From Nakamurella sp. (GTDB lineage Bacteria; Actinomycetota; Actinomycetes; Mycobacteriales; Nakamurellaceae): a stretch of 24,000 nucleotides of DNA. The stretch lies in contig CBDFHS010000005.1 in the NCBI GenBank assembly GCA_965247715.1, forward strand, positions 54,113 through 78,112, written 5' to 3'. Position 1 is the stretch's first letter, and every line of letters begins with the position of its first letter. The translations under genes were made by a program, and so were the position numbers. Positions 1 through 20,385 of the stretch are shown here, in pieces. The notes under the pieces were generated by a model. That model was not told the DNA's origin. It saw nothing but the letters and a program-made list of their open reading frames with translations, and did not search any database.

Positions 1-867
1 GCCGGTCGGCTGGCCGGCCTAGCCGACCGGTTCGCCGACGACGTACTGATCGTCATGCGCGTGTACGTCGAGAAGCCCCGTACCCGCCTTGGCTGGAAGG
101 GGATGGTCAGCGACCCCAGGCTGGATGGCTCCGATGACCTCGGCGGTGGCCTGCGGATGTCGCGGCAGCTGATGGTCGATATCGCCGACCGGGGCGTGCC
201 GGTGGCCTGCGAGTTCCTCGACCCGGTGCCGCACCGCTACCTGTCCGATGCAGTGTCCTGGAGCTCGATCGGGGCACGCACGGTGCAGAGCCCGGTGCAC
301 CGGCAGCTCGCCAGCGGCCTGCACTCCCCTGTGGGGCTCAAGAATGCCACCAGTGGCCAGGTAGAGGACGCGATCGACGCGATTCTCACTGCGGCTCACG
401 GACACGTCTTCCCTGGTATCACCGAGGACGGCCAGGCGGCTGTCGTCTCCACGGCCGGCAACCCGGATTGTCACCTGGTCCTGCGCGGCGGCAGCACCGG
501 GCCCAACTACGGACCCAAGCACGTCGGACGGGCCCTGGACCTGCTCGCCGCCGCCGGTCTGCCCCCGCGGCTGTTCATCGACGCCAGTCACGGAAATTGC
601 GGCAAGGACCACCGCCGACAGCCGCAGGTGGTCGCGGACGTCGCGGCCCAGATCAGCGGCGGGCAGCACGGCATCGCGGGGGTAATGCTGGAGAGCTTCC
701 TGACCGCGGGCCGGCAGGACCTCGTCCTCGGCCGGGCCGACCGGCTCACTTTCGGTCAGAGCGTCACGGACGCCTGCATCGGCTGGGACGAGACGGCCCA
801 GCTCGTCGAGCAGCTCGCCACAGCCTCCTTCCGCCGCTCGGCCCAGCGGGCCCCGCTGGCTGCTTAG
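1..867 (+). CDS. DAHP synthase, class I-alpha (AroG/F/H-like); 5' end lies outside the window
   Basis: Frame 1 is open from nt 1 (..DDVLIVMRVYVEKPRTRLGWKGMVSDP..). It is collinear by eye with E. coli AroG from VMRVYFEKPRTTVGWKG through GARTxxSxxHRxLASGL, PVGxKN, CHxxLRGG, IDxSHxN and DACIGW to the C-terminus. Stop TAG at 865-867. Confidence 0.9.
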   Translation, partial: AGRLAGLADRFADDVLIVMRVYVEKPRTRLGWKGMVSDPRLDGSDDLGGGLRMSRQLMVDIADRGVPVACEFLDPVPHRYLSDAVSWSSIGARTVQSPVHRQLASGLHSPVGLKNATSGQVEDAIDAILTAAHGHVFPGITEDGQAAVVSTAGNPDCHLVLRGGSTGPNYGPKHVGRALDLLAAAGLPPRLFIDASHGNCGKDHRRQPQVVADVAAQISGGQHGIAGVMLESFLTAGRQDLVLGRADRLTFGQSVTDACIGWDETAQLVEQLATASFRRSAQRAPLAA

Positions 868-891
868 GACTCAGCCGCTTAGGACTCAACA
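862..891. repeat. 15-bp tandem duplication spanning the DAHP synthase stop codon
   Basis: gcttaggactcagcc (862-876) is followed directly by gcttaggactcaaca (877-891). The first 12 nt are identical, so the TAG stop (865-867) recurs in frame at 880-882. Confidence 0.85.
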
Positions 892-907
892 GAAGGGAGC
901 CCAGTCC

Positions 908-3235
908 ATGAACGAAACCACGACATCGAGGTCGACGCTACCGTTGGCCCACCTCACCGGGACCCCGGTCGGCACAACGCACCGCGTCGCGATCACCGTC
1001 CCGGGTGGTGGCGACTGGCGCCGCCGACAGTATGCCGAGGCCGCCCTGGCGGTGCTGGTACATCGCTACACCGGCGAGACCGACCTGACCATCGCCAGCG
1101 ACGAGCTGGGCGCTGTGCTGCCGGTGCACCTCACCGCGGAGACGAAGGCCTGCGCCCTGCTCAACGCCATCGCCGCGGTGCCCCCGGGCACGCTGGACAA
1201 CCGTAGGGCCGTCGCCGCGGTGGTCGGCGTGGAACCCGCCGGCCCGCTGCCGGCACCACTCACGGTCGTCGTCGGTGACGGCGCTGCGGAGCTGCTGATG
1301 CCCGGTGACGAGTTTGACGACCGGGCGGTCGGGCAGTACGCCCGCCACCTCGTCCGGGTCATGGCGACGCTCTCGGCCGACCCGACTATCTCGGTGGGCG
1401 ACATCGCCCTGCTGACCGACGAGGAGACCCACAAGATCCTGGTCGACTGGAACATCACCGACGAGGACGTGCCGCCGGCCTTCTTCCACGAGATCATCGC
1501 CGACATTGCGGCGCGCACCCCGGACACCGTGGCGGTGGCCTCGCCCGGGGGCACGTTGACGTTCGGGGAGCTGGACCGGTGCGCCAACCAGTTGGCGCAC
1601 CGGCTCGCCGGGTTGGGCGCCCACCCGCACGACCGGATCGCGACCTGTTTCCCGCGCGGCCCGGAGAGCCTGATCGCCCAGCTGGCCTGCTTCAAGGCCG
1701 GAGCCGCCGCGGTTCTGCTCGATCCGGACTTCCCGGTGGACCGCCTCCGGTACATGATCGAGGACGCCGGCTCGGTGGTCGCCCTGACAATGGCCGAGCA
1801 TGAGCCGAAGCTGTACGGAATCTGCCCGGTCGTGCCGCTGGACACCGACGGCTGGCGCTCCGAGCCGGAGACCCCGGTCAACGAGCCGGTCACCGCGGAC
1901 GACCTCATCCACGTCTGCTACACCTCGGGTTCCACCGGAATGCCCAAAGCCGTCCTGGTCCGCCACGGTGCCGCCCGCAACCTCATCTACAGCATGCGCA
2001 AGGTGTTGGGCATAACGAGCGAGTCGCGCGGCACCTGGCTCGCCGCGCCCGGCTACGGCATGGTCGAGGTTGAGTGCTTCTCCGTGCTCGCGGCCGGTGC
2101 CCCGGTGCAGATCCCGGAGCCGCACGTGGTGACCTCGCCAGTCTGGTTGCGCGACTGGCTGGTGGCCGAGCGGATCACCCACACCTTGCTGATGAAGGCG
2201 ATGGCCGAGCGGCTGTGGACCCTGCCGTGGCCGGCGGACACGGCGTTGCAGAACATCCGCATCTGCGGGGAGCGGGTGCAGTCGTGGCCGCCGGCCGCAC
2301 TGCCCTTCCGGGTCTTCAACCTGTACGGCTCGGCTGAGGCCACGGTCGTGGCGACCTGCGACATCACCGGCCTCGGGCAGGAGCTCGGCGAACACGGGCG
2401 GGCGGTGGAGCTGCCGCCCATCGGCCGGCCGCTGCACAACGTCAAGACGTACGTCCTCGACGAGCGTCTGCGCCCCGTGCCTCCGGGCGTGGTCGGGGAG
2501 ATCTTTGTGGCCGGTGCCAGCCTGTCGGAGGGCTACCTCAACCAGCCGGCCGCGACTGCCGAGAAGTGGCTTGCCAATCCGATGGACCCGGTCCGGTACC
2601 CCGTCCTGTACCGCACCGGGGACATGGCCCGGTACTGGGCGGACGGCAACATCGAAATCGTCGGGCGGGCTGACAACCAGGTGAAGGTCCGCGGCAATCG
2701 GGTACACCTCGGCGAGATCGAAGTGGCCCTGGCCGCCCAGCCGGGCGTGCACCAGGCGGCAGTGCTAGCCAAGAAGGACGACGACGGCGACACCCGACTG
2801 GTGGCCTATCTGGAGCCGGAGGGCGGCGCCCGGATCGTCGTCCGGGAGATCCGCAGCGCCCTGCGGGACCGGCTGCCGTCCTTCATGATTCCGGTGGCCT
2901 ACATCGTCGGCGTCTTCCCGACCAGCACTAATGGCAAGATCGACCGCAAGACGCTGCCCGAGCCGCCGCGCTCGCGCCCGGATGTGGGCAGCGCGTATCA
3001 GGAGCCGCGCAACCCGATCGAGGAGCAACTGCACCTGTTGTGGACATCCACCCTGGACCTGGAGGGCATCGGGGTGCTGGACAACTTCTTCGAACTGGGT
3101 GGCGACTCGCTACGGGCCGCGACCCTGACAGCGAAGATCCAGGCGTTCTTCCGGGTCGACATCACAATCGACGACCTGTTCGACGAGGCCAGCATCGAGC
3201 GGATGGCCCTGACCGTCGGAGCCGCCCTGCGTTGA
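908..3235 (+). CDS. NRPS module: vestigial C-terminal half of a condensation domain, adenylation domain, peptidyl carrier protein (C*-A-T), 775 aa
   Basis: ATG at 908 with GAAGGGAG 8 nt upstream. A-domain cores: YTSGSTGMPKA (A3), NLYGSAEAT (A5), YRTGDMARY (A7), GRADNQVKVRGNRVHLGEIE (A8), NGKIDRK (A10). PCP motif FFELGGDSLRA. The first ~175 aa resemble only the distal half of a C domain (..LLTDEETHKILVDWN); no HHxxxDG motif is present. Confidence 0.9.
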   Translation: MNETTTSRSTLPLAHLTGTPVGTTHRVAITVPGGGDWRRRQYAEAALAVLVHRYTGETDLTIASDELGAVLPVHLTAETKACALLNAIAAVPPGTLDNRRAVAAVVGVEPAGPLPAPLTVVVGDGAAELLMPGDEFDDRAVGQYARHLVRVMATLSADPTISVGDIALLTDEETHKILVDWNITDEDVPPAFFHEIIADIAARTPDTVAVASPGGTLTFGELDRCANQLAHRLAGLGAHPHDRIATCFPRGPESLIAQLACFKAGAAAVLLDPDFPVDRLRYMIEDAGSVVALTMAEHEPKLYGICPVVPLDTDGWRSEPETPVNEPVTADDLIHVCYTSGSTGMPKAVLVRHGAARNLIYSMRKVLGITSESRGTWLAAPGYGMVEVECFSVLAAGAPVQIPEPHVVTSPVWLRDWLVAERITHTLLMKAMAERLWTLPWPADTALQNIRICGERVQSWPPAALPFRVFNLYGSAEATVVATCDITGLGQELGEHGRAVELPPIGRPLHNVKTYVLDERLRPVPPGVVGEIFVAGASLSEGYLNQPAATAEKWLANPMDPVRYPVLYRTGDMARYWADGNIEIVGRADNQVKVRGNRVHLGEIEVALAAQPGVHQAAVLAKKDDDGDTRLVAYLEPEGGARIVVREIRSALRDRLPSFMIPVAYIVGVFPTSTNGKIDRKTLPEPPRSRPDVGSAYQEPRNPIEEQLHLLWTSTLDLEGIGVLDNFFELGGDSLRAATLTAKIQAFFRVDITIDDLFDEASIERMALTVGAALR

Positions 3236-3314
3236 TGACGCCGGCCTTCCGATCCGGTGCGGTGTCTCGGCCGTGAGATTTTCACGATCGACCATGAAGT
3301 GTTCATACCCGATT

Positions 3315-3326
3315 GATGACGTCATC
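3315..3326. promoter_or_regulatory. Perfect 12-bp palindrome GATGACGTCATC in the NRPS-MFS intergenic region; candidate operator
   Basis: Self-complementary over 12/12 nt. It lies in the only AT-richer spacer of the cluster (3236-3499), about 175 nt upstream of the MFS start. Confidence 0.35.
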
Positions 3327-3499
3327 TGTAGGGGTGCGAATCTTGTCCGAACTACGCTGTCGGGGTGTCGGGAAAGCGTCGGCACGAAAGCGTGATCAAG
3401 CCTTTCCAACCCGTGCGATGTCAACCTTCGCGCCCTTTTTCACCGCAGCTGTGGATGCCGACGCCTCAATGATCCCAGAACAATGTGGAAGGAAGGGAA

Positions 3500-4948
3500 A
3501 TGGCTTCTCAAAATGGCGGTCGCCCGCCATTGGCGCTGCTTTGCAGTGCTCAGTTCATGTTGACCCTCGACTTCGCGATCGTGAATGTCGCGCTGCCCGA
3601 GATCAGCCATGGACTGAAGTTCAGCAGCGGCAGCCTGCAGTGGGTGATCGGCGCCTATGCCCTTTTCTTCGGCGGCTTCCTGCTGCTCGGCGGCCGGGCC
3701 GGCGACCTGTTCGGACGTAAGCGGATGTTCGTCGTGGGGCTCGTCATCTTCACACTCGCGTCTCTGATCGGTGGCCTCGCCACCGCGCCGATCATCCTGA
3801 TCGTCGCTAGAGCGGCCCAGGGGTTGTCCGCGGCAGCGGTCTCACCGGCCGTGCTCGCCCTGATCGCCGCCGGGTACACAGACCCGGCGGCCAGAGCCAA
3901 GGCCATGGGCGTCTTCGGCGCGGTTGCGTCGGCCGGTTTCGCCGGCGGAGTGCTCGCCGGTGGCATCCTCACCGAGTACCTCGGCTGGCGCTCGGTCATG
4001 TACGTCAACGTGCCAGTCGGCATCCTGCTGGTGGCTCTGGCCATCCGTAAGCTGGTTCCGGACCACCTCGGCCACCGGGCGCGCCGGGTGGATGTGCCCG
4101 GCGCGGTGCTGGTGACCGCGGCGTTCTGCCTCTTCAGCTACGCCCTCACCGCGGCCTCGGACCGGGGCTGGGGTGCGCCGACGGTCATCTGGCCGATCGT
4201 GGGTGGTAGCGTGCTACTCCTCGCCTTCCTGGCCCTGGAGGTCAGGGTCAAGGAGCCACTGGTCACGCTCAGCATCTTCAAGATCCGTAGTGTCACGGGC
4301 GGCAACGTGATCGCCTTCCTGTCCGGTGGAGTCATGTCGATCTCCACCTTCTGCCTGACCCTCTACATGCAGCAGATCCTGCACTACTCGTCGATCCGTA
4401 CCGGGCTGGCGTTCTTTCCGCAGGCATTGGTGGTCGTCCTGGCCAGCCTCCCGGTGGCCAAGATGACGACGCGGTACGGCCCGCGTCCGGTGCTGGTCGG
4501 TGGCGCGCTGTTCCTGGTGGCCGGTTCCTCGTGGCTGATCCTGGCCGACGGCCCGGGTACCTATCTGAGTCACGTGCTCCCCGGTGGTGTGCTCCTCGGC
4601 TGCGGGGTGACCGTCATGATGATCACCACGGCGTTCGCCGCCACCAGCGGGGTGTCGCCGCAGCACATGGGTCTGGCGTCGGGCCTGTACAACTCCCTAC
4701 GCCAGCTCGGGGTCGGCCTCTGCCTCGCGGTGGCGGTCGCCCTGGCCGGTTTCGGCGGCAGCGGCAGCGATGTGTCCCATTTCCGCACCGCCTTCATTCT
4801 GTCGGCAGTCCTATCCGCGGTCATCGTCGTCTCGGCGGTGCTGATCCCGGGCCGTAAGCCGGCCGCGGCCCCGGTCTCCCCGGTCTCCCCGGTTGGCCCG
4901 GCGTCTTCCCGTCCGGCCCGGGAGCGGGCGGCAGCCGGCACCGAATAG
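3500..4948 (+). CDS. MFS transporter, DHA2 (EmrB/QacA-like, 14-TMS type) drug/metabolite exporter
   Basis: ATG at 3500 preceded by GGAAGGAAGGGAAA; the ORF-track start at 3485 is a GTG inside that RBS. Motif A GRAGDLFGRKRMFVVG is present, with many hydrophobic segments across 482 aa. Confidence 0.85.
   Translation: MASQNGGRPPLALLCSAQFMLTLDFAIVNVALPEISHGLKFSSGSLQWVIGAYALFFGGFLLLGGRAGDLFGRKRMFVVGLVIFTLASLIGGLATAPIILIVARAAQGLSAAAVSPAVLALIAAGYTDPAARAKAMGVFGAVASAGFAGGVLAGGILTEYLGWRSVMYVNVPVGILLVALAIRKLVPDHLGHRARRVDVPGAVLVTAAFCLFSYALTAASDRGWGAPTVIWPIVGGSVLLLAFLALEVRVKEPLVTLSIFKIRSVTGGNVIAFLSGGVMSISTFCLTLYMQQILHYSSIRTGLAFFPQALVVVLASLPVAKMTTRYGPRPVLVGGALFLVAGSSWLILADGPGTYLSHVLPGGVLLGCGVTVMMITTAFAATSGVSPQHMGLASGLYNSLRQLGVGLCLAVAVALAGFGGSGSDVSHFRTAFILSAVLSAVIVVSAVLIPGRKPAAAPVSPVSPVGPASSRPARERAAAGTE
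4871..4894 (+). repeat. 9-bp coding tandem repeat (ccggtctcc x2 plus a partial copy) giving PVSPVSPVG in the MFS C-terminal tail
   Basis: ccggtctcc occurs at 4871-4879 and 4880-4888, then ccggtt. Confidence 0.8.
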
Positions 4949-4964
4949 GCATTGCCCTCCCCGA

Positions 4965-5002
4965 GACAGATCGGCCCCGCCGTCAGGCTGGGTCGATCTG
5001 TC
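4965..5002 (+). terminator. Hairpin downstream of the MFS gene (9-bp stem GACAGATCG/CGATCTGTC, 20-nt loop)
   Basis: Perfect inverted repeat 4965-4973 / 4994-5002, 17 nt after the stop codon. There is no U-tract. Confidence 0.3.
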
Positions 5003-5010
5003 GTGTGCGG

Positions 5011-5031
5011 GGCGGTTCTCGTGGAACCGCC
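5011..5031 (+). terminator. GC-rich hairpin (8-bp stem GGCGGTTC/GAACCGCC, 5-nt loop), I-shaped terminator candidate
   Basis: Perfect inverted repeat 5011-5018 / 5024-5031, directly after the first hairpin. There is no U-tract. Confidence 0.35.
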
Positions 5032-5155
5032 GGCTGTCCGCCGTCGTGGAATCGCGTGCCGGACAGGACTGACAAGTGCTGCTTATCGCGCCTCCATTGC
5101 CCTCCCGGCGGGTCCGACGTAGCGTTTTCGTTGGTAACAATGTAAAGGGAGAGCT

Positions 5156-6403
5156 ATGACCCACATACTCGTGGCCGGCGGCGGCATCGGCGGCCTGGCC
5201 GCTGCGCTGGCAGCCGCCGAGCGCCAACACCACGTCACGGTTCTGGAACGGCAGGACACCTTCGCGGAGTACGGCGCCGGCATCCAGCTGGCGCCGAATG
5301 CGTTCCATGCCCTCGACCGGCTCGGGGTGGGCCAGCTGGTTCGCCGCCGCGCGGTGTTCATCGACGAGTTGCGGCTGATGGACAGTCGCAACGGACGCAA
5401 GCTGGCCGCCCTGCCACTCGGCGAGGCCTACCAGCGGCGGTTCGGCAACCCGTACGCGGTTGTGCACCGCGGCGACCTTTACCTGGCGCTGCTTGACGCG
5501 TGCCGGGCCAACCGGCGCATCGAGCTGCGGCCCGGCACCGCGGTCACCGGGTACCGACAGAGGCCGGACCGGGTCGTCGCTCTGACCGCGGCCGGCGACC
5601 CGGTTGCCGGCACCGCCCTGATCGGCGCGGACGGTCTGCGCTCGGCGGTGCGTGCCCAGCTTGTCGGCGATGGCCGCCCCCGGGTCTCCGGCCACACCAT
5701 CTACCGGTGCGTCATCCCGATGAGCCAGGTCCCGCCGGAGCTGCGCTGGAACGCGGTCACGCTGTGGGCCGGCCCGGGCTGGCACTTCGTGCACTACCCG
5801 ATCGGCAGGGGGGAGTTCCTCAACCTGGCCGCCACCCGCGACGACGGCGCGGAGGCCGAGGTGAGCGGCGTGCCGGTCGACCGGGCGCACGTCTTCGGCC
5901 AGTTCCCGGGTCTGGGGCGCACCGCCCGCCGGCTGCTCGAGCTGGGCGACGGATGGCGGTCCTGGGTGCTCTGTGACCGTGACCCCGGTAACGCCTGGGT
6001 CGACGGACGGGTGGCCCTGCTGGGCGACGCCGCCCACCCGATGCTGCAGTACGCGGCGCAGGGCGCGTGCACGGCCCTCGAGGACGCCGTCGTTCTGGGA
6101 CGCTTCCTGGCCCCCGGCAGCCTGCCGCAAGGCCTGCTTGCGTACGCCGCGCACCGGCGGCACCGCACCGCCCGGATCCAACTGCTGGCCCGGGCCATGG
6201 GTGAGCGGCTCTACCACGCCTGCGGCGCCGAGGCCGACGACCGCGACAGCATGCTGACGGGGCTGACCGAGCCGGACATGCTCGACGCGGTCGCCTGGCT
6301 GCACGGCCCGGAGGCGATCGACGTCGACCCCGCCGGCACGGAGCCGATCGGCTCCGTGCCGGGTGGCCACCCCGTCTCGGTCGGCGTCGGGGGGCGGGGA
6401 TGA
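5156..6403 (+). CDS. FAD-dependent aromatic-ring monooxygenase (salicylate hydroxylase / 3-hydroxybenzoate 6-hydroxylase family)
   Basis: ATG at 5156 after AAAGGGAGAG. Motifs: [18 protein letters not shown] (GxGxxG), [10 protein letters not shown] (DG motif), [24 protein letters not shown] (GD motif). Confidence 0.85.
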
Positions 6404-7641
6404 GCACTCTGCGCTGGCTCACCGCCGGGGAGTCGCACGGAGCCGCGCTGGTGGCGACCCTGGAGGGACTGCCGGCCGGGGTGCCGGTCACCACCGCGGA
6501 CGTCGGCGCCGCGCTTGCCCGCCGCCGCCTGGGCCATGGCCGTGGCGCCCGGATGAGCTTCGAGCGTGACGAGGTCTCCATCGTCGGCGGGGTCAGACAC
6601 GGGCAAACGATCGGCTCGCCGGTCGCCATCGTGGTCGCCAACTCGGAGTGGCCGAAGTGGGAGCAGGTGATGGCGGCCGACCCGGTCCCAGCCGCGATGC
6701 TCAACGGGCTCGCCCGCAACGCGCCGCTGACCCGGCCGCGGCCCGGGCACGCCGACCTGGCCGGCATGCAGAAGTACGGGTTCGGCGACGCCCGGCCGGT
6801 GCTCGAGCGCGCCAGCGCGCGGGAGACGGCGGCCCGGGTGGCGCTGGGCGCGGTCGCGCGCGCCTATCTGTGCGAGACCGTCGGGGTGTGGATCGTCTCG
6901 CACGTCGTCGAGCTCGGCGGTGTCACCTCCCCGGCCGGCCGGTACCCCACCCCGGACGACGAGGGTGCTCTGGACGCCGACCCGGTGCGGTGTCTCGACG
7001 CGGCCGCGAGCAGCGCGATGGTGGCCCGCATCGACCAGGCGCACCGGAGCGGGGAGACCCTGGGTGGTGTCGTGGAGGTGCTGGCGTACCGCGTCCCGGT
7101 GGGGCTGGGCTCCCACGTCCACTGGGACCGCCGCCTCGATGCCCGCCTGGCGGCGGCGTTGATGGGCATCCAGGCGATCAAGGGCGTCGAGGTGGGGGAC
7201 GGGTTTGCTTCCGCGCGGGTGCCGGGCTCCGCCGCCCATGACGAGATCGTGGCGGGGGACGACGGGCTGCGGCGTACCTCCGCGCGTGCCGGTGGCATCG
7301 AGGGCGGCCTGAGCACCGGCGAGCCGCTGCGGGTCCGAGCGGCGATGAAGCCGATCGCCACGGTGCCGCGGGCGCTGGCCACAGTGGACGTGGCGACAGG
7401 AAAGCCGGCGCGCGCCCACCACCAGCGTTCCGACGTGTGTGCCGTGCCGGCCGCAGGCATCGTTGCCGAGGCCATGGTGGCTCTGGTGCTGGCGGACGCG
7501 GTGGCGGAGAAGTTCGGCGGCGACTCGGTCGCCGAGACCCGCCGCAACGTCCAGGGCTACCTGGAGCACCTGGCCGATCCGTGCCGGACGACCTGGGCGC
7601 CGGTGATTCCGGCGCCGGCGCTAGGCGAGAAGAATAGCTAA
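6400..7641 (+). CDS. aroC: Chorismate synthase
   Basis: N-terminus [24 protein letters not shown] is the chorismate synthase signature; further matches at [18 protein letters not shown] and GGxEGG. The start overlaps the upstream stop (ATGA at 6400-6403). Confidence 0.92.
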
Positions 7642-7727
7642 TCATCTTCCTGTTGTTCGGCGTGATGTTACCGACCTAGCGTTTACGTAGGTACCAACAC
7701 GCCGGCCGACCCGAAAGGATCACGTCG

Positions 7728-9074: not shown

Positions 9075-10120
9075 TGCGCGTCGACGACGTCTATCTGGCC
9101 GGTGTCGGCAGTTACCTGCCGGCGGCGGTGCCCGTCGTACAGGCGGTCGACAACGGCTGGTGGGACGACGACGCGGCCACCGCGTCCGGCATCACCGCGG
9201 TCCGGGTGGCCGGCGACGTTCCGGCGCCCGAGCTGGCGGTCCGTGCCGCCGCGGTCGCCGTGCGGCGCAGCGGCCACGACGCGGACGACTTCGGCGCCGT
9301 CCTGCACAGCAGCACGTACCACCAGGGCCCTGACGGCTGGTCCGCCCCCCACTACGTGCTGCGGCACGCCCTGAACCGGCCGATCAGCGCGGTCGAGGTG
9401 CGGCAGGGGTGCCTCGGCATGATCGCCGGGCTACAGATGGCGGCACACCTCGTGACCGCGGACCGCGGTCACGAGGCTGTCCTGCTGACCGCCGGCGACA
9501 ACTTCGGTGCACCGCTGGTCGACCGGTGGCGGGCCTCACGTCTGTTCGTGCTCGCCGACGCGGGGGCCGCCGTGGTGGTCTCCCGGCGTGCCGGCTTCGC
9601 CCGGGTCCGGTCGTTCGCGGCCGTGTCCGACCCGCGGATGGAGGAGCTGCACCGTGGCGGCGAGGCGCTGTTCCCGCCCGGGGTCACCGTCGGCCGCGGC
9701 CTGGACTTCGAGGAGCGTACCGGGTACTGGCGGCGGCAGTGGGCCACGGGCGCCGCACCGCCGATGGGCAACTTCGGCGACTGCGTGGCCGATGCCGCGC
9801 AGCAGGCCCTGGACGAGGCCGGCATCGAGAAGGTCGCCCGGGTTTGCCACGTCGGGTACGCCCGTGGGCCGCTGCAGGCGATGCTGCTGGACCCGCTCGG
9901 CATCGACGCCGAGCAGGGCGTTTGGGACATCACCCGGGAGATCGGCCACGCCGGCGCCGCGGACCCGTTCCTCGCGTTGGAGCGCCTGTGGACCGACGGC
10001 TCGGTGACACCGGGCGATCACCTGCTGCTGATCGGCGCCACACCCGGCATGGAGGCCGGCTGTGCGGTCATCGAGATCATCGCTTCTTACCAGCCCGAAG
10101 GAGGGTCGGCACATGCTTGA
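9074..10120 (+). CDS. KAS III (FabH)-like acyltransferase, 348 aa
   Basis: ATG at 9074 overlaps the upstream TGA (GTGATG). Cys113 in VRQGCLGM aligns with FabH Cys112, and His259 lies in VCHVGYA. The FabH GNTSAAS position reads GHAGAAD (His292). The ORF-track start at 8756 is an in-frame extension through the upstream gene. Confidence 0.8.
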   Translation: MRVDDVYLAGVGSYLPAAVPVVQAVDNGWWDDDAATASGITAVRVAGDVPAPELAVRAAAVAVRRSGHDADDFGAVLHSSTYHQGPDGWSAPHYVLRHALNRPISAVEVRQGCLGMIAGLQMAAHLVTADRGHEAVLLTAGDNFGAPLVDRWRASRLFVLADAGAAVVVSRRAGFARVRSFAAVSDPRMEELHRGGEALFPPGVTVGRGLDFEERTGYWRRQWATGAAPPMGNFGDCVADAAQQALDEAGIEKVARVCHVGYARGPLQAMLLDPLGIDAEQGVWDITREIGHAGAADPFLALERLWTDGSVTPGDHLLLIGATPGMEAGCAVIEIIASYQPEGGSAHA

Positions 10121-11765
10121 CGGATGCACACCCTGGCCGGCGGAGCTCGCCGACCGTTACCGCAGCGCGGGATGGTGGCGGGGCGTCACCCTCGATGAGC
10201 TGCTCCGGTCCTGGGCACTGTCCTACGGTGACCGGGTCGCCCTGGTCAGCGGATCGCAACGGATCACCTACCGCGACCTCGACGCCCGGGTCGACCGGAT
10301 GGCCGCGGGCCTGCTGCGGCACGGGGTCGGGCCCGGCGACCGGATCCTATTGCAGCTGCCGAACGTACCGGAATTCGTCATCGTCGCGTTCGCCCTTTTT
10401 CGGGCCGGCGCCATGCCGGTGTTCTCGCTGGCCTCGCACCGTGCCAACGAGATCGGTCACCTGATCGAGCTGTCCGGTGCGGTGGGGTACGTCCTGCCCG
10501 GTGTGCACCGCGGCTTCGACCACCCGGAGTTGGCCCGGCGGATGCTGCGCGAGCAGCCCACCCTGCGTCAGGCCTTCGTGCTGGGCGGCGCCGACGGCCT
10601 GCTGGCCCTGGAGGAGGTCGACGCGGATCCCGTCCAGGGTCCCACCCCGGACCCCTGCGACGTGGCGTTCTTCCTGCTCTCCGGCGGGACCACAGCGCTG
10701 CCTAAACTGATCCCGCGCACCCATGACGACTATGCGTACCAGCTGCGCATCGTGGCGCAGCTGTGCGAGCTCGGCGCGGACGACGTCTACTTGGCCGCCC
10801 TGCCGGTGGAGTTCAACTTCACCTGGGGCTGCCCCGGGGTGCTCGGCACCCTGTCGAGGGGGGGAACGGTCGTGCTGGCCGCGGATCCCTCACCGGAGCA
10901 CTGCTTCGACCTGATCGCCCGGGAACGGGTCACGGTCACCTCCCTGGTCCCTACGGTCGCGCAGCTCTGGGTCGAGGCGGCCGAGTGGGCCGGGCGGGAC
11001 CTGTCAACGCTGCGCCTGGTGCAGATCGGCGGCGCCAAGCTGCAGTCCCACCTGGCCGCCCGGGTCGGGCCTGCACTGGGCTGCCGGTTGCAGCAAGTGT
11101 TCGGGATGGCCGAGGGGCTGTTGTCGATGACGCGCCGCGACGACGACCCGCGCTCGGTGCTCGAGACTCAGGGACGGCCGATCTCACCGGCCGACGAGAT
11201 CCGGGTGGTCGACGAGCACGACGCCCCCGTGCCGGACGGTCAGGTCGGTGAACTGCTCACCCGGGGCCCGTACACCTTGCGCGGGTACTACCGGGCGCCG
11301 GAGCACAACCGGCGGGCGTTCACCGCGGACGGCTTCTACCGTACCGGCGACCTGGCCCGGATCACGGCCCACGGCGACCTGGTCATCGAGGGCCGGCTCA
11401 AGGACGTGGTCATCCGCGGCGGTGACAAGATCGCCGCCGGCGAGGTGGAGAGCCATCTGCTGGCCCAGCCGCAGATCAGCCGAGCTGCCGTGGTGGCGGT
11501 GCCGGACGACTTCCTCGGCGAGCGCACCTACGCCTTCCTGGTATGCCCTGGCGATCGGCCCACGCTGCCGGACCTCAAACGCGCTCTGCACGCGCGCGGC
11601 CTCGCGGAGTTCAAGCTGCCGGACCGGGTCGAGCACGTCCGGGCGCTGCCGCTGACTCCGCTCGGCAAGGTCGATAAGAAGGTTCTCGCGGCCGCCGCTG
11701 CGGATCCGTCCGTGCCACGCGACTGGGCGCCCGCCGCAGAACCGGCCGCCCTCCAGAAGGGATGA
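10113..11765 (+). CDS. Aryl-acid adenylating enzyme (EntE/DhbE/MbtA family), salicylate-type specificity residues
   Basis: ATG at 10113 after GAAGGAGGG, overlapping the upstream gene by 8 nt. TPWPAELADRYRSAGWW resembles the EntE N-terminus. Motifs: SGGTTALPKLIPRTH, QVFGMAEGL, YRTGDLA, GRLKDVVIRGGDKI, LGKVDKK. The pocket residues read Asn235-Phe236...Cys240 (FNFTWGCPG). Confidence 0.88.
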   Translation: MLDGCTPWPAELADRYRSAGWWRGVTLDELLRSWALSYGDRVALVSGSQRITYRDLDARVDRMAAGLLRHGVGPGDRILLQLPNVPEFVIVAFALFRAGAMPVFSLASHRANEIGHLIELSGAVGYVLPGVHRGFDHPELARRMLREQPTLRQAFVLGGADGLLALEEVDADPVQGPTPDPCDVAFFLLSGGTTALPKLIPRTHDDYAYQLRIVAQLCELGADDVYLAALPVEFNFTWGCPGVLGTLSRGGTVVLAADPSPEHCFDLIARERVTVTSLVPTVAQLWVEAAEWAGRDLSTLRLVQIGGAKLQSHLAARVGPALGCRLQQVFGMAEGLLSMTRRDDDPRSVLETQGRPISPADEIRVVDEHDAPVPDGQVGELLTRGPYTLRGYYRAPEHNRRAFTADGFYRTGDLARITAHGDLVIEGRLKDVVIRGGDKIAAGEVESHLLAQPQISRAAVVAVPDDFLGERTYAFLVCPGDRPTLPDLKRALHARGLAEFKLPDRVEHVRALPLTPLGKVDKKVLAAAAADPSVPRDWAPAAEPAALQKG

Positions 11766-12031
11766 TCGACATGACCAGACCATTCGCCGGCCCGCCGGCT
11801 GCGGACGACCTGCGCCGCGTCGTCGCGGACCTGATCGGCGCGGACCCGGAGGGGATCGCCGGGGACGCCAACCTGGTCTTCCTGGGGCTCGGCTCGCTGG
11901 AGATGATGCGGCTGGCCACCCGGTGGCGCCGCGAGGGGTACACAGTGCCCTTCGCCGAACTGGCCACCGAACCCACCCTTGACCGGTGGGCCGCCCTGCT
12001 GGCCGCGAACTGGGTCGGTGGTACGCCATGA
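11762..12031 (+). CDS. Stand-alone aryl/acyl carrier protein (89 aa)
   Basis: ATGA overlap with the ligase stop. Phosphopantetheine-attachment-like motif FLGLGSLEMM. Size and position match ArCPs that partner EntE-type ligases. Confidence 0.75.
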   Translation: MIDMTRPFAGPPAADDLRRVVADLIGADPEGIAGDANLVFLGLGSLEMMRLATRWRREGYTVPFAELATEPTLDRWAALLAANWVGGTP

Positions 12032-13512
12032 GCCGGTTGCTGGTCAGCGGTGGCCACCTCTACCCGGCCGACGCCGCCGCCTCGGTCGTACCCGACGGCG
12101 CGGTCCTGGTCGACGGCGACCGGATCGTCGCGGCCGGCCCGGACGCGCAGGTGCGGGCGGCCATCCCGGCCGAGTGGCAGGCCACCCTGCGCACCATCGA
12201 CGCACGTGGGTCGCTGATCTTGCCCGGCTTCGTCAACGCCCACTGGCACGACCTGTTCGCCCTGCGGTTCCCCTTCAAGGGTGCCCTGCGCCCGCCGGTG
12301 GACCGCGGGGACCGGGCCGCGTTCATGGCTCTGGGGGGTGACCTGACCCAGATCTCCACCGTCTTCGACTCGTTCACCAACCGGCTCGCCCAGCTGGCCC
12401 CGGACGAGGCGCTGGCGATCGCCCGCTACTCGATGTGGACCCAGCTGCGGTCGGGCGTCACGACCCTCGGGGACGTCGGCTCGTACAACCGGCCGGAGGC
12501 CCTGGCCGCCGCGGCCCGGGACCTGGGCATGCGGGCGATGCTCAGCACCTGGGCGGGTGACACCGTGTGCGCGCCGGGGGAGTCGCGTTTCCGGCGCACC
12601 CGGGACGCGGACGCGGTCCTGCAGCCCATCGAGGCGCTGCTGGCCGCGTGCGCGGCCGATCCCGGCGGAACCGTGCGGGCTCGCCCCACCGCGGTGTACG
12701 GGATCAACATGAGCGACGAACTCGGCGCCGGCTTCCGGCAGCTGATCGACCGGTACGACGTGCCGTTCGCCACCCATGTCGGCGCTCTGCGCCACGAGGC
12801 GGAGGTGTCCCGCGCCTACTACGGCACCACCCCGGTGCGCCGCCTGGCAGACCTGGGTTTGCTCTCGAAGCGCTTCATGGCGGTCCACTGCGCGTTCGCG
12901 GACGCCGACGAGCGCAAGTTGCTGCTGGCCGCGAATGTCCACATCAGCCACTCGCCGGCAAAGTACGGCCCGGCCGGGGAGTCGACCCTGTCGGAGACCC
13001 GGGCGATTCCGGAGCTGCGTCGCGATGGTCTGGACGTCTCCCTGTCCACCGACGGCGCGGCCATGCCGCTGGGTGGCATGGCGGAGGCGATGCGGGCAGC
13101 CTGGCATACCTACACCGAAATGTACGCCGACCCCACGGAGCTGCTGCCCACCGGTGCCCTAGCCATGGCCACCGCCGTGGCGGCCCGCGGGCTCGACTGG
13201 GACGACGAAATCGGCAGCATCGAGGTGGGCAAGCAGGCCGACCTCGTCATAGTACCGGCCGACGACTGGCGGTACCTGCTCAACCCGCGCCCGCTGGAGG
13301 GATTCCTGACCCTGGGCGGATCCGCGGACGTCGACACGGTGCTAGTCGGCGGCAAGGTGGTGGTGTCGGGCGGTCGATGCACCAACATGGACGAGTCGGT
13401 CCTGGAAGCTGACTACCTGCGCGCGTTAGGCACCTTCTCGGTGCGGTGCCTGGGCGTCGACCCCGACGTGGTCGCCACACACCTGCGCCGGCGTGCGGGC
13501 GGGGGTAGCTGA
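12028..13512 (+). CDS. Amidohydrolase-superfamily metalloenzyme (494 aa), candidate heterocycle-forming cyclase
   Basis: ATGA overlap with the carrier-protein stop (12028-12031). It has an N-terminal beta-sandwich-type lead (VLVDGDRIVAAG) followed by PGFVNAHWHD, the HxH metal motif. Confidence 0.8.
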   Translation: MSRLLVSGGHLYPADAAASVVPDGAVLVDGDRIVAAGPDAQVRAAIPAEWQATLRTIDARGSLILPGFVNAHWHDLFALRFPFKGALRPPVDRGDRAAFMALGGDLTQISTVFDSFTNRLAQLAPDEALAIARYSMWTQLRSGVTTLGDVGSYNRPEALAAAARDLGMRAMLSTWAGDTVCAPGESRFRRTRDADAVLQPIEALLAACAADPGGTVRARPTAVYGINMSDELGAGFRQLIDRYDVPFATHVGALRHEAEVSRAYYGTTPVRRLADLGLLSKRFMAVHCAFADADERKLLLAANVHISHSPAKYGPAGESTLSETRAIPELRRDGLDVSLSTDGAAMPLGGMAEAMRAAWHTYTEMYADPTELLPTGALAMATAVAARGLDWDDEIGSIEVGKQADLVIVPADDWRYLLNPRPLEGFLTLGGSADVDTVLVGGKVVVSGGRCTNMDESVLEADYLRALGTFSVRCLGVDPDVVATHLRRRAGGGS

Positions 13513-13513
13513 G

Positions 13514-14284
13514 ATGGCTCAGCGAGTAGCCCTGGTCACCGGGGCCGCCGGGGGGATCGGCGACGCCGTCGCGCGGGCCCTGGCATCGCAGGGGACCGCG
13601 GTGGCCGTCCTGGACGCCCGCGCCGACCTGCTGGACCTGCTCGTCAAGGACCTCACCGCGGCGGGCCATCGGGTCCGTGGCTACCCGGTGGACGTGCGCT
13701 CGACCGCCGAGGTCGACGAGGCTGTCGGGCGGGCCGAGCTCGAACTCGGCCCCCTCGACAGCCTGGTCAACGCGGCCGGCGTGCTACGGATCGGCGCGGC
13801 CGCGTCGTTCACCGACGAGGACTGGGATCTCACCTTCGCGGTCAACACCACGGGGGTATTCCATGTCAGCAGGGCAGTGTCGGCCCGGATGATCCCACGC
13901 CGCCGGGGGGTCATCGTCACGGTTGCCTCGAACGCGTCACGTACCCCGAGGTGGCACATGGCCGCCTACTCGGCGTCCAAGGCGGCGGCCACGGCGTTCA
14001 CCAAGAACCTGGGCCTAGAGCTGGCCGAGTACGGCATCCGGTGCAACGTGGTCGCACCTGGCTCCACCGACACACCGATGCTGACCTCGCTCTGGACCGG
14101 CGACGACGCCCGACGCGCCTCCATCGAAGGCACCCCGGATACATTTCGCGTCGGCATCCCGTTGGGCCGTCTGGCTCGGCCGGAGGACGTCGCGGACGCG
14201 GTGCTGTTCCTGCTCTCCGACCAGGCCACGCACATCACCATGCACGACCTCACCATCGACGGCGGCGCAGCCCTGGGCCACTGA
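13514..14284 (+). CDS. SDR, 2,3-dihydro-2,3-dihydroxybenzoate dehydrogenase family (EntA/DhbA-like); here predicted DHHA dehydrogenase
   Basis: ATG at 13514, 2 nt after the upstream TGA. Motifs: VALVTGAAGGIGDAV (TGxxxGxG), NAAG and YSASKAA (YxxxK). Confidence 0.85.
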   Translation: MAQRVALVTGAAGGIGDAVARALASQGTAVAVLDARADLLDLLVKDLTAAGHRVRGYPVDVRSTAEVDEAVGRAELELGPLDSLVNAAGVLRIGAAASFTDEDWDLTFAVNTTGVFHVSRAVSARMIPRRRGVIVTVASNASRTPRWHMAAYSASKAAATAFTKNLGLELAEYGIRCNVVAPGSTDTPMLTSLWTGDDARRASIEGTPDTFRVGIPLGRLARPEDVADAVLFLLSDQATHITMHDLTIDGGAALGH

Positions 14285-14342
14285 CCACCCGGTCACGGCA
14301 CCACCTACCCCGATCTTCCGCCAAGTGAACGGAGGCACCCCC

Positions 14343-14990
14343 ATGGCCATCCCGGCGATCGCGCCGTACCCGATGCCGACCGAGGACGAGCTACCGGTGA
14401 ACGTCGCACCCTGGGCGATCCGACCGGACCGAGCGATGCTGCTCGTCCACGACATGCAGAACTATTTCCTCGGACCGTTCGCGCCGGACCGGGCGCCACT
14501 CACCGAGCTGGTGCGCAACGTCTCCGCGCTGCGGAAGGGGTTCAGCGCGGCCGGCGCCCCGATCTCGTACACCGCGCAGCCCGGGGGCATGAGCGACGAG
14601 CAGCGCGGCCTGCTCAAGGACTTCTGGGGGGTCGGCATGACTACCGACCCGGATCAGCGGAGGATCCTAGCGGAGGTCCAGCCGACCGGTGCGGACACGG
14701 TGCTAACCAAGTGGCGGCCGAGTGCGTTCTGCCGCACGGATCTGCTGTCGCTGATGCAGCGGCACGGCCGTGACCAGCTGGTCATCTGCGGCGTCTACGC
14801 ACACGTCGGCATCCTGATGACCGCACACGAGGGCTTCTCGAATGACATCGAGACCTTCGTGGTTGCCGACGCGGTCGCGGACTTCACCGCTGAGTACCAC
14901 CGGATGGCCCTCACCTACGCCTCCGCCCGGTGTGCGGTCACGGTGTCCACCGCGGCGGCGCTGCGAATGCTGGAAGGACCCCTGCCGTGA
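14343..14990 (+). CDS. Isochorismatase-family hydrolase (PhzD/EntB N-domain-like, no fused ArCP)
   Basis: ATG at 14343, 7 nt after GGAGG. MAIPAIAPYPMP...RAMLLVHDMQNYF parallels EntB MAIPKLQAYALP...AALLIHDMQDYF. It is 215 aa, so it carries the hydrolase domain only. Confidence 0.88.
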   Translation: MAIPAIAPYPMPTEDELPVNVAPWAIRPDRAMLLVHDMQNYFLGPFAPDRAPLTELVRNVSALRKGFSAAGAPISYTAQPGGMSDEQRGLLKDFWGVGMTTDPDQRRILAEVQPTGADTVLTKWRPSAFCRTDLLSLMQRHGRDQLVICGVYAHVGILMTAHEGFSNDIETFVVADAVADFTAEYHRMALTYASARCAVTVSTAAALRMLEGPLP

Positions 14991-16918
14991 CCGGAGCACA
15001 GCTTCTTGATCGGCTCCTGCTGCCCGGAGCGCCGCCGTTCGCGCTGCTGCACCGCCGCGGCGCCACCGGCGACGACCGGCTTGACATCGTCATCGGCACG
15101 GTCACCGAGCCGGCCCAGATCGCCGATATCGTCCTGCCTGGACCCGGGGACCGCGACCGCCACGAGGTGCTCGCGGTCCTGCCGTACCGGCAGATCGCGG
15201 AGCGGGGGTTCGCCTGCGTCGACGACGGGGCGCCGTTGCTGGCCATGACCATCACGGAGCAGGCCACCCTGGACCGAGCCGAAGCGATGAGCCGGCTGCC
15301 GGACGACCCGGTCGAGCTGACTGGCGGCGGCTTTGACCTCGACGACGAGCAGTACGCCGCCACCGTGCGGGAGGTGGTCGCCGAGGAGATCGGTCGGGGC
15401 ACCGGTGCTAACTTTGTCCTCAAGCGCACCTTCACCGCGACCGTGGAGGGCTGGTCCGCCCGTACCGCCCTGGCCTGCTTCCGCAGGCTGCTCGGCCGCG
15501 ATCACGGCTCGCACTGGACGTTCGTGGTGCACACCGGCGACCGCACGCTGGTGGGGGCCTCCCCGGAGCGGCACATCAGCCTCGCGGGGGGCACCGCAGT
15601 GATGAACCCGATCAGTGGCACGTACCGCTATCCCGCGGACGGCCCGAACCTGCCGGACGTGCTGTCCTTCCTGGCCGACGACAAGGAAGCCAACGAGCTG
15701 TACATGGTTCTGGACGAGGAGCTCAAGATGATGGGCCGGGTGTGCGAGCTCGGCGGACGCGCGGTGGGCCCGTACCTCAAGTCGATGGCCCAGGTGGCGC
15801 ACACGGAGTACTTCATCGAGGGACGCACCGACCTGGACGTGCGGGACGTGCTGCGTGACACTATGTTCGCCCCCACGGTCACCGGTGGCCCGGTGGAGAG
15901 CGCCTGCCGGGCGATCAGCCGCTTCGAGCCGGAGGGGCGCGGCTACTACGCCGGTGTGGTCGCGCTCATCGGACGCGATCGGGCCGGGGAGCGCGCGCTG
16001 GACTCCGCGATCGTGATCCGGACCGCGGAGGTCGACGCCGTCGGCCGGCTGCGCCTGGCGGTCGGCGCGACCCTCGTGAGGGACTCCGACCCGGCCGCAG
16101 AGGCGGCCGAGACTGTGGCCAAGGCTTCCGGGCTGCTGGACGCGCTGCGGGGCGCCCCGGCCGCGTCGCACCGGGCCGCGCCGACGGCCTCGCTCGGGGC
16201 CCACCCCGCGATCCGGCGCATGCTGGCGCGGCGTAACGAGTCGCTCGGCGAGTTCTGGCTGGAGGCCCCGCAGACGCGGCACCGCCGGGTGGCCGACCTG
16301 CTCCACCGGCGGATCCTGGTGATCGACGCGGAGGACAACTTCACCCTGATGGCCAGGCACATGATCTCGTCCCTCGGCTGCGTGGTGCACGTCCGCCGGT
16401 TCGACGAGCTGTACGATCTGCGGGCCTACGACCTGGTGATTGTGGGGCCGGGTCCTGGGGACCCGACGGACCGCGCCGACCGCAAGATCGCGTGGTTGCA
16501 GAACGAGACCCGCCGCCTGCTCGAGCTCGGTGTCCCCTTTTTTTCGGTCTGCCTCGGCCACCAGGTTCTCAGCACGGTGCTTAGGTTGCCGATCGTGCGC
16601 AACGCCACCCCCAGCCAGGGGGTGCAGCGCGAGATCGAGGTGTTCGGCCGCCGCGAGCAGGTGGGCTTCTACAACACCTTCTCCGCCCGCTGCGACACCG
16701 ACGAGGTGCCCAGCGTGCTGCGGCCCGGGACGGTCACGGTCAGCCGCGACCGGACGACCGGCGAGGTGTACGCGCTGCGCGGCCCGGGCTTCGCGTCGGT
16801 GCAGTTCCATCCGGTGTCTGTGCTGACCAGGCACGGGGCGGAACTGCTCGGTGAGGTGTTTAGCGATCTGTTGGCCGAGACCGGGTACCCGTCGCCTCCC
16901 CTGCTCGCCGCGGGTTAG
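14987..16918 (+). CDS. Fused MST + class I glutamine amidotransferase enzyme, PhzE-type 2-amino-2-desoxyisochorismate (ADIC) synthase
   Basis: GTG at 14987 in a GTGA overlap with the upstream stop; 643 aa. The N-terminus LLDRLLLPGAPPFALLHRRG is PhzE-like. MST motifs GASPERH and PISGT. The C-terminal GATase has FFSVCLGHQ (Cys522) and VQFHPVS (His608). Confidence 0.85.
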   Translation: MTGAQLLDRLLLPGAPPFALLHRRGATGDDRLDIVIGTVTEPAQIADIVLPGPGDRDRHEVLAVLPYRQIAERGFACVDDGAPLLAMTITEQATLDRAEAMSRLPDDPVELTGGGFDLDDEQYAATVREVVAEEIGRGTGANFVLKRTFTATVEGWSARTALACFRRLLGRDHGSHWTFVVHTGDRTLVGASPERHISLAGGTAVMNPISGTYRYPADGPNLPDVLSFLADDKEANELYMVLDEELKMMGRVCELGGRAVGPYLKSMAQVAHTEYFIEGRTDLDVRDVLRDTMFAPTVTGGPVESACRAISRFEPEGRGYYAGVVALIGRDRAGERALDSAIVIRTAEVDAVGRLRLAVGATLVRDSDPAAEAAETVAKASGLLDALRGAPAASHRAAPTASLGAHPAIRRMLARRNESLGEFWLEAPQTRHRRVADLLHRRILVIDAEDNFTLMARHMISSLGCVVHVRRFDELYDLRAYDLVIVGPGPGDPTDRADRKIAWLQNETRRLLELGVPFFSVCLGHQVLSTVLRLPIVRNATPSQGVQREIEVFGRREQVGFYNTFSARCDTDEVPSVLRPGTVTVSRDRTTGEVYALRGPGFASVQFHPVSVLTRHGAELLGEVFSDLLAETGYPSPPLLAAG

Positions 16919-16942
16919 GGGAGGGCGGCGGCGGGACCCGGA

Positions 16943-20345: not shown

Positions 20346-20351
20346 TGAGAA

Positions 20352-20385
20352 GAGCGGAATGACGGGAGACTGTCACGTTCCGTTC
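20352..20385 (+). ncRNA. Group II intron domain V (catalytic hairpin)
   Basis: GAGCGGAAUGACGG-GAGA-CUGUCA-CG-UUCCGUUC: an 8-bp lower stem containing the AGC triad, a 2-nt bulge (20376-20377), a 6-bp upper stem and a GNRA tetraloop GAGA. Confidence 0.9.

Follow-up and report, generated by a model that had tools for sequence, protein, structure and literature searches.

The window analysed here, a 24,000-nt stretch of contig CBDFHS010000005.1 from Nakamurella sp., appears to hold most of a benzoxazole biosynthetic gene cluster of a high-GC actinomycete, with its closest relatives in Krasilnikovia. Judged by gene content, the locus combines a caboxamycin-type cassette for salicylate and 3-hydroxyanthranilate (3-HAA) with a widespread second aryl-loading module. 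This module comprises a second ketoacyl synthase III (KAS III)-like enzyme (KAS3b, most probably encoded just upstream of nt 1), a DAHP synthase (DAHP, 3-deoxy-D-arabinoheptulosonate 7-phosphate) and a protein resembling non-ribosomal peptide synthetases (NRPSs) with half a condensation (C) domain, an adenylation (A) domain and a thiolation (T) domain (half-C–A–T). The best overall explanation, to which we assign a probability of about 0.6, is that the second module performs an additional aryl transfer and that the cluster makes an extended scaffold. Such a scaffold is the most likely product, and it is possibly a UK-1-type bis(benzoxazole). What the original prediction, an earlier reading of the bare sequence, had listed as extra parts is better seen as a single conserved sub-cluster, found again in dozens of genomes, and the conserved KAS3b–DAHP–half-C–A–T module sets the whole locus apart from all characterised benzoxazole clusters.

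The caboxamycin cluster of Streptomyces sp. NTK 937 consists of cbxR and cbxA-I, with cbxA, B, D and E being essential, and encodes a salicylate synthase (cbxA), a KAS III (cbxB), an AMP ligase (cbxC), an acyl carrier protein (cbxD), an amidohydrolase (cbxE) and a class II DAHP synthase (cbxF), followed by cbxG-I (PMC5481532). Between 7728 and 16918, gene content and order of the window are those of cbxA-B-C-D-E-G-H-I, only cbxF being absent from the series. The genes, all on the forward strand, were assigned by Pfam, NCBIfam and PDB sequence searches, and counterparts in the nataxazole (nat), A33853 (bom), mycemycin (mym/mye) and microechmycin (mich) clusters are given where they exist. The cassette starts with an MbtI/Irp9-type salicylate synthase (7728–9074; cbxA; TIGR03494 451 bits at a cut-off of 325), which has MbtI (315–332 bits) and Irp9 as top PDB matches. 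It is followed by a KAS III-like acyltransferase with a Cys nucleophile, here called KAS3a (refined coordinates 9074–10120; cbxB/natS/bomK/myeG; PDB entry 7vyu, 402 bits), by a salicylate-type aryl-AMP ligase of the DhbE family (10113–11765; cbxC/natL1; 5wm2 625 bits, DhbE 607 bits) and by a free aryl carrier protein of 89 aa with the serine motif GLGSL (11762–12031; cbxD; PF00550 40 bits), whose gene starts in an ATGA overlap with the ligase gene. Next comes a NatAM-type Zn amidohydrolase, the putative benzoxazole cyclase (12028–13512; cbxE/natAM/bomN/michA; 6sj0 603 bits). Three genes for the 3-HAA branch complete the cassette. They encode a dehydrogenase of the 2,3-dihydro-2,3-dihydroxybenzoate type for conversion of dihydro-3-hydroxyanthranilate (DHHA) to 3-HAA (13514–14284; cbxG; TIGR04316 347 bits, cut-off 300), a PhzD-type isochorismatase forming DHHA from 2-amino-2-deoxyisochorismate (ADIC) (14343–14990; cbxH; PhzD 1nf9 240 bits; PF00857) and a PhzE-type ADIC synthase, in which a menaquinone/siderophore/tryptophan-type domain is fused to a glutamine amidotransferase (GATase) domain (refined coordinates 14987–16918; cbxI; PF00425 and PF00117). 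The PhzE-like protein matches 3r74 over its full length (654 bits across residues 5–627).

On every criterion that sequences can address, the cassette is thus a member of the caboxamycin-type family, sharing eight genes in the same order and the precursors salicylate and 3-HAA. A Streptomyces antibiotic regulatory protein (SARP) and a class II DAHP synthase, whose gene separates cbxE from cbxG, are encoded in cbx only, whereas only the window locus has a half-C–A–T NRPS, a second KAS III (predicted to lie upstream), a type-I DAHP synthase, a flavin hydroxylase, a chorismate synthase and a VOC protein. When one genome was scanned for each species, related amidohydrolases turned up at 63 loci, and 41 of them, from Streptomyces, Nonomuraea, Embleya, Streptosporangium, Krasilnikovia and others, hold the eight genes of the salicylate cassette in identical order.

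The benzoxazole product is well supported because the amidohydrolase is closely related to NatAM (59.7% identity) and to MichA of Micromonospora sp. SCSIO 07395 (68%) and retains all six residues that were defined for NatAM by Song et al. (PMC7204872), namely H75, H77, H253 and D345 as Zn ligands, with H290 and K315 as catalytic residues. NatAM (6sj0) was matched with 603 bits, compared with 88 bits for the next amidohydrolase family. CbxE is only ~62% identical to the Streptomyces megasporus member of the window's clade. The original prediction had made its case dependent on this enzyme grouping with the benzoxazole-forming amidohydrolases, and by pairwise identities to NatAM and MichA it does so. 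With salicylate and 3-HAA supply, a NatAM-type amidohydrolase and the cbx gene order, a 2-(2-hydroxyphenyl)benzoxazole-type scaffold, as originally proposed, is still the best prediction for the core of the product.

Two other assignments had to be revised. The ligase had been seen as a NatL2/BomJ-like partner of the amidohydrolase; instead it is of the DhbE/salicylate-AMP-ligase type, like CbxC and NatL1, both of which depend on a carrier protein and the KAS III-like transferase, and it pairs with the free carrier protein. Its TIGR02275 score of 631 bits lies under the cut-off of 724, and its other matches include PchD, EntE and BasE. As a gap in the motif made the automatic GrsA-aligned specificity code unreliable, the motif FNFTWGCPG was read by eye, yielding N235, F236 and C240, of which Cys240 presumably marks salicylate as substrate. 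A PaaK-like ligase of the NatL2/BomJ type (~430 aa, carrier-free 3-HAA ester formation) was not found in the window, where the DhbE-type enzyme is the sole free ligase; PaaK-like ligases do occur in the mich-type relatives L007, L037 and L058. KAS3a, in turn, had been regarded as surplus to a minimal scaffold. Since its counterpart cbxB is essential for caboxamycin production (PMC5481532), KAS3a is part of the core scaffold machinery and not an addition. Its PDB matches are 7vyu, an unnamed '3-oxoacyl-ACP synthase' (402 bits) on which a full-text search brought up nothing, followed by ChlB3, DpsC and CerJ, and it is 59% identical to MyeG from the mycemycin cluster. The nucleophile-His-Asp triad is represented by the Cys in RQGCLGM and by His and Asp in GHAGAAD.

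The NRPS-like half-C–A–T protein of 775 aa (908–3235, forward strand) has Pfam matches to AMP-binding, AMP-binding_C and PP-binding. For residues 1–195, the Pfam Condensation profile gave a sub-threshold match (E=0.057) to its last 45 positions only, and the HHxxxDG motif was absent from an alignment of 21 orthologues. In the AF2 model (pLDDT 88), this N-terminal domain has about half the fold of a C domain (TMt ~0.27), and its Foldseek matches in the PDB were exclusively condensation and X-domains. The earlier label 'C*' was therefore fair, and the half domain is unable to catalyse condensation. With half a C domain and no C, TE (thioesterase) or R (reductase) domain present, release must be the task of another enzyme. 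The T domain carries the motif GGDSL. After the ten Stachelhaus positions of GrsA had been checked, alignment to GrsA gave the A-domain code GMVLRCLVVK, in which Gly235 replaces Asp235. This code is near-invariant across ~50 orthologues (GMVLRCLTVK in mich Orf6), with Gly235 in all of them. Gly235 removes the carboxylate that anchors the α-amino group, indicating that the substrate is not an α-amino acid. The protein is thus no ordinary amino-acid module, as had been considered, but has the code of an aminobenzoate-associated clade.

Orthologues with 56–78% identity, mich Orf6 included, are present in more than 45 actinomycete genomes. The next-closest NRPS clade (45–53% identity, larger proteins of ~580–1250 aa, many members with C-A-T organisation) has the code GLVLRAVVVK. 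In the two cases examined, the NRPS gene directly follows a series of genes for a PaaK-like ligase, a TrpE-like chorismate enzyme and a GATase, with a DAHP synthase gene coming directly behind it. From this TrpE-like/GATase neighbourhood of the paralogues, we infer an anthranilate-type aromatic acid as substrate of the A domain, which would be 3-HAA or benzoxazole-4-carboxylate derived from 3-HAA. Position 330 of the A domain, Val or Thr in salicylate-type and mich-type clusters, respectively, was considered as a further substrate test, but the distinction was not clean owing to an exception in Embleya and it was not used. A separate family of clusters, from Actinokineospora and Actinoplanes (L065, 6263–14856; L066, 5219–14727), has its genes ordered as PaaK-like ligase, TrpE-like enzyme, GATase, NRPS (with the code GLVLRAVVVK) and DAHP synthase, with a UbiA prenyltransferase and a SARP regulator encoded nearby.

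Among the 41 loci with a salicylate cassette, and counting within ±10 kb of the amidohydrolase gene, an NRPS orthologue was found in 32 (55–65% identity over the full length; for Krasilnikovia ~80%, within the covered part), a second KAS III-like gene in 31 and a type-I DAHP synthase gene in 30. KAS3b, DAHP synthase and NRPS genes are always adjacent and in that order. The triad is located upstream of the salicylate synthase gene in Nonomuraea, Umezawaea, Pseudonocardia and Spirillospora and downstream of the PhzE gene in Streptomyces and Embleya. In the closest relative, Krasilnikovia sp. M28-CT-15, with an NRPS of 78% identity, the order is ABATE/zf-CGNR regulator (reverse strand), KAS3b, DAHP synthase, NRPS, MFS (major facilitator superfamily) transporter, small helix-turn-helix protein, flavin monooxygenase, salicylate synthase and so on. 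The window begins inside its own DAHP synthase gene, so KAS3b is most probably missing only through the position of the cut. The expectation that the cluster continues upstream of nt 1 is thereby backed by relatives: in Krasilnikovia, KAS3b and the ABATE/zf-CGNR regulator precede the DAHP synthase gene, and all close relatives encode such a KAS III at the position that would lie just before nt 1. The KAS3b proteins align best with DpsC, having a serine in an SNG motif and a GHLGxxD motif on Ser118, His297 and Asp302, which fits a function as acyltransferase that off-loads the T-domain thioester.

The distribution of the triad also bears on its role. On contig JBHMBS010000004.1 of Streptosporangium vulgare (L001, L067), a series of genes for an aldehyde dehydrogenase (ALDH), an SRPBCC protein, KAS3b, DAHP synthase, NRPS, flavin monooxygenase and chorismate synthase lies ~15 kb from the salicylate cassette, indicating that the locus is built of two separable modules. 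In mich-type loci, KAS3b-DAHP-NRPS is paired with a NatL2-type ligase in place of the salicylate cassette, which argues that the module acts in addition to the first ring-forming system. In the literature, we found no function assigned to the KAS3b–DAHP–half-C–A–T module and no dedicated UK-1-type cluster, and a search for benzoxazoles from Nonomuraea, Streptosporangium or Actinoplanes returned nothing relevant. In Krasilnikovia, Luedemannella and Streptosporangium (L064, 1–7066; L037, 2670–9111; L067, 1–4412), the region upstream of the ABATE regulator and KAS3b repeatedly holds LysW/LysX/semialdehyde-dehydrogenase-like genes along with genes for a split transketolase, an AMP-ligase and an acyl-CoA dehydrogenase, the last of which corresponds to mich orf-2. 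This set may be part of a larger cluster and supply a further building block.

In the pathway that we propose, the PhzE-, PhzD- and EntA-like enzymes would convert chorismate to 3-HAA, while the MbtI-type synthase would convert chorismate to salicylate, and the DAHP and chorismate synthases would raise the precursor flux. The DhbE-type ligase would adenylate salicylate and load it onto the free carrier protein, from which KAS3a would transfer the salicyl group to the aminophenol of 3-HAA. Dehydration of the adduct by the NatAM-type amidohydrolase would then yield 2-(2-hydroxyphenyl)benzoxazole-4-carboxylate. Up to this point, the supply of 3-HAA and salicylate, the salicyl transfer and the ring closure are modelled on what is established for the cbx, nat and bom pathways; the second aryl transfer is our own proposal. 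The half-C–A–T protein would activate an anthranilate-type acid, either 3-HAA or the benzoxazole-4-carboxylate, and tether it to its T domain, and KAS3b would off-load the thioester onto a nucleophile. The A domain may load 3-HAA that is acylated onto another 3-HAA before salicylation, or it may load the finished benzoxazole acid, which is then passed to 3-HAA. With a second turnover of the amidohydrolase, both step orders would converge on one bis(benzoxazole) acid, built as salicylate–3-HAA–3-HAA. This acid has the UK-1 skeleton minus the methyl ester and may be hydroxylated. The 3-hydroxybenzoate-6-hydroxylase-like enzyme could add a para-hydroxyl group to a precursor or to the scaffold, and the MFS protein would export the product. 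Which acid the A domain activates, what accepts it, in which order the steps run and what structure finally results are all deduced, and we put forward only tentatively that half-C–A–T and KAS3b are a thiotemplated alternative to NatL2 and that a single NatAM-type cyclase builds both oxazole rings. If this were true, the half-C–A–T/KAS3b family would represent a dedicated pathway to UK-1-type bis(benzoxazole)s, which would also explain orf5 and orf6 of the mich cluster and the adventitious esters.

Several observations weigh against an extended scaffold made in this way. When the mich cluster was expressed heterologously from a bacterial artificial chromosome (BAC), mono-benzoxazoles and their esters were the only products and a bis-benzoxazole was not obtained (PMC9864271), which weakens the simplest model with 3-HAA as acceptor, at least in that host. 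There is no O-methyltransferase gene in the window, so the product would not be UK-1 itself. The A-domain substrate is deduced from the neighbourhoods of paralogues that are only 45–53% identical, and the TrpE-like proteins encoded beside these do not reach the equivalog cut-offs, so that they could be PabB-like. The window itself does not include the second KAS III gene, whose upstream location is extrapolated from relatives. Finally, no ALDH, SRPBCC or FMO-type monooxygenase genes, which relatives often carry, were detected in the window by tblastn; together with the mobile DNA at the cluster end described below, this suggests that the cluster may be a rearranged, truncated or decayed copy.

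The additional module could also serve a different purpose. If plain or hydroxylated caboxamycin is made, half-C–A–T and KAS III might pass the benzoxazole-4-carboxylate to a non-aromatic acceptor, an alcohol or amine from another source, so that an ester or amide would form in place of a second benzoxazole. We consider this unlikely, albeit with several observations in its favour. The KAS III-like relatives CerJ, ChlB3 and DpsC are acyltransferases, and microechmycins B-E are glycerol and phenethyl esters of a benzoxazole acid for which the authors found no esterifying enzyme (PMC9864271). In the deposited cluster, mich orf5 (KAS III) and orf6 (the NRPS orthologue) were left unassigned, and this A-T/KAS III pair is a candidate for the formation of these esters. 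An acceptor could be supplied by the recurring LysW/LysX/transketolase/AMP-ligase/acyl-CoA-dehydrogenase genes. However, the window lacks acceptor-forming genes, the Streptomyces loci retain the module without the LysW/transketolase set, and the glycerol esters were racemic and were ascribed by the authors to host enzymes (PMC9864271).

Another alternative would be that the cassette makes a mycemycin-like dibenzoxazepinone in place of a benzoxazole. The mym and mye clusters hold a salicylate synthase, a DhbE-type ligase, a carrier protein, MymG/MyeG and a 513-aa amidohydrolase, and deletion of myeD and myeG abolished production (PMC5867642), with MyeG being 59% identical to KAS3a. Yet mycemycin clusters use a tryptophan route, whereas no tryptophan 2,3-dioxygenase (TDO), kynureninase or tryptophan halogenase was found among the open reading frames (ORFs) of the window, which has the PhzE/PhzD/dehydrogenase route to 3-HAA as in cbx. 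Since the amidohydrolase moreover retains all cyclase residues of NatAM, we regard a dibenzoxazepinone as improbable. Still less credible is the addition of a proteinogenic or other α-amino acid by the C*-A-T protein, or a salicylate-capped siderophore pathway. Salicylate synthase, aryl-AMP ligase, carrier protein and NRPS do co-occur in phenolate siderophore clusters, and the matches of the ligase to PchD, EntE and BasE point in the same direction. On the other hand, position 235 is Gly instead of Asp in all ~50 orthologues, a catalytic C or heterocyclisation (Cy) domain and a TE are absent, the NatAM-type amidohydrolase and the 3-HAA genes would have no role in such a pathway, and the gene order is that of cbx. 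An NRPS module that adds an amino acid was rejected on account of Gly235 and the missing catalytic C domain.

For the preferred reading, a caboxamycin-type cassette with a second aryl-transfer module, a parallel in logic is found in the nat and bom pathways (PMC7204872), where two aryl-transfer systems and one amidohydrolase lead to three-unit products. They share with the window locus the NatAM-type cyclase with identical catalytic residues and the carrier-dependent aryl transfer of the NatL1/NatAC1/NatS type. In contrast to nat and bom, which have the PaaK-like ligase NatL2/BomJ, the second activating enzyme of the window would be an A-T protein of the NRPS type, served by a separate DpsC-like KAS III, and the 6-methylsalicylic acid synthase, 3-hydroxypicolinate genes and methyltransferase of nat and bom are absent. 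The mich cluster (microechmycins; PMC9864271; OP432093) shares MichA (68%), the 3-HAA genes and a YdeI gene. Its orf3–orf6 region, unassigned in the publication, holds ALDH–SRPBCC–KAS III (orf5)–DAHP synthase (MichG)–NRPS (orf6, 57% identity). Unlike the window, which lacks ALDH and SRPBCC, mich has a NatL2-type ligase (MichE) and an O-methyltransferase but no salicylate cassette. The mym and mye clusters (PMC5867642) have in common with the window a salicylate synthase, a ligase, a carrier protein, a KAS III-like enzyme (MyeG, 59%) and a large amidohydrolase, but they use the tryptophan/kynurenine route, contain halogenases and methyltransferases, lack PhzE/PhzD, and their product was assigned as dibenzoxazepinone.

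Benzoxazoles are privileged drug scaffolds, and few of their pathways in bacteria are assigned, namely those for calcimycin, A33853, caboxamycin, nataxazole, mich and closoxazole; in a paper from 2025, the list of identified loci is still limited to those for calcimycin, A33853, caboxamycin and nataxazole. The locus belongs to a clade of more than 40 actinomycete clusters, in which an aryl-activating NRPS-like protein and a Ser-type KAS III nearly always accompany the caboxamycin cassette. Solving the function of this pair would show how three-unit benzoxazoles can be assembled without NatL2 and would let genome miners tell two-unit from extended benzoxazole clusters, and the pair might also be a carrier-dependent aryl-transfer tool for biocatalysis. 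While the assignment to benzoxazoles as such will not surprise a natural-products specialist, the recurrent module is moderately interesting and directly testable.

In the left half of the window, the DAHP synthase gene (1–867, forward strand) has lost its 5' end to the window edge. It encodes a type-I (AroG/F/H-like) enzyme (PF00793 202 bits; NF009395 376 bits, cut-off 343) that lacks ~75 N-terminal residues, the profile match starting at position 38/75, and it adjoins the NRPS gene in 30 of the 41 related loci. The 40-nt spacer between the two genes (window 860–907) contains a direct repeat of CTTAGGACTCA, located upstream of a Shine-Dalgarno-like GGGAG sequence; the first copy of the repeat runs over the stop codon of the DAHP synthase gene. 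Behind the NRPS gene, a DHA2-family MFS efflux transporter (3497–4948, forward strand; PF07690 206 bits; 210 bits for the EmrB subfamily model TIGR00711, which does not reach the cut-off of 230) probably serves export or self-resistance. It is followed by a class A flavin monooxygenase resembling 3-hydroxybenzoate 6-hydroxylase (5156–6403, forward strand; NF006021 452 bits, just under the cut-off of 459), with a top PDB match to 4bjy, deposited as 'probable salicylate monooxygenase'. It is probably a para-hydroxylating tailoring or precursor enzyme and appears to be accessory, because only 12 of the 41 related loci carry one. The gene next to it (6400–7641, forward strand; PF01264 380 bits) encodes a chorismate synthase, presumably an extra copy for precursor supply. 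This enzyme was found in only two of the 41 core loci and additionally in Streptosporangium vulgare, again beside NRPS and flavin-monooxygenase genes. Past the other end of the cassette, a VOC/glyoxalase-family protein encoded on the reverse strand (16943–17350; PF00903) appears to be part of the cluster as well, although it lies beyond the end originally given. With homologues (51–75% identity) in 19 of the 41 related loci, it is possibly a candidate for self-protection or self-resistance.

The gene calls themselves agree with the original prediction. All 13 co-directional genes between nt 1 and 16918 are present where they had been placed and were named correctly, as judged by the Pfam, NCBIfam and PDB searches and by the GC content at third codon positions (GC3), which is 0.86–0.92 for these forward-strand ORFs, whereas long antisense ORFs have a GC3 of 0.71–0.81 and a GC1-high pattern typical of non-coding frames. 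That the genes have almost no spacers holds strictly for 7728–16918, but not for the flanks of the MFS gene, where gaps of ~260 and 207 nt were found. From the salicylate synthase to the PhzE gene, neighbouring genes meet in a TGATG, ATGA or GTGA overlap or with a 1-nt gap, and they are translationally coupled. Domain searches of the window also agreed in finding no complete C domain, TE, phosphopantetheinyl transferase or regulator. The GC content of the window is 0.68–0.76 across 1–17 kb, except for a dip to 0.63 at 3–4 kb near the MFS gene.

Over 17–24 kb, the GC content drops to 0.58–0.68, and mobile elements seem to have replaced or rearranged the downstream part of the cluster. The PhzE gene of Krasilnikovia, Nonomuraea and Embleya is followed by genes for an ALDH, an SRPBCC protein, which some loci have as a fusion with an FMO-type monooxygenase, and a YdeI protein. 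Positions 16919–24000 of the window were compared with the corresponding parts of L004 and L006 (about 14.9–20.3 kb), and the YdeI/OmdA gene of the window (22347–23057, reverse strand) is only 36% identical to the cluster-linked YdeI. The same region contains a complete group II intron (18566–20425, forward strand), with Rfam matches to D1-D4 (18566–18688, 103 bits) and D5-D6 (20350–20425, 58 bits) and an ORF for a reverse transcriptase/maturase (19050–20345; RVT_1 and GIIM). At its 3' end, it overlaps with the end of a DDE_5/DDE_Tnp_1 transposase ORF on the opposite strand (20305–21594), whose Pfam match begins at profile position 74. On the other side of the intron, an ORF region split over two frames (17545–18456, reverse strand) has weak matches to HTH_32 and HTH_38 that suggest an IS30-like N-terminus.

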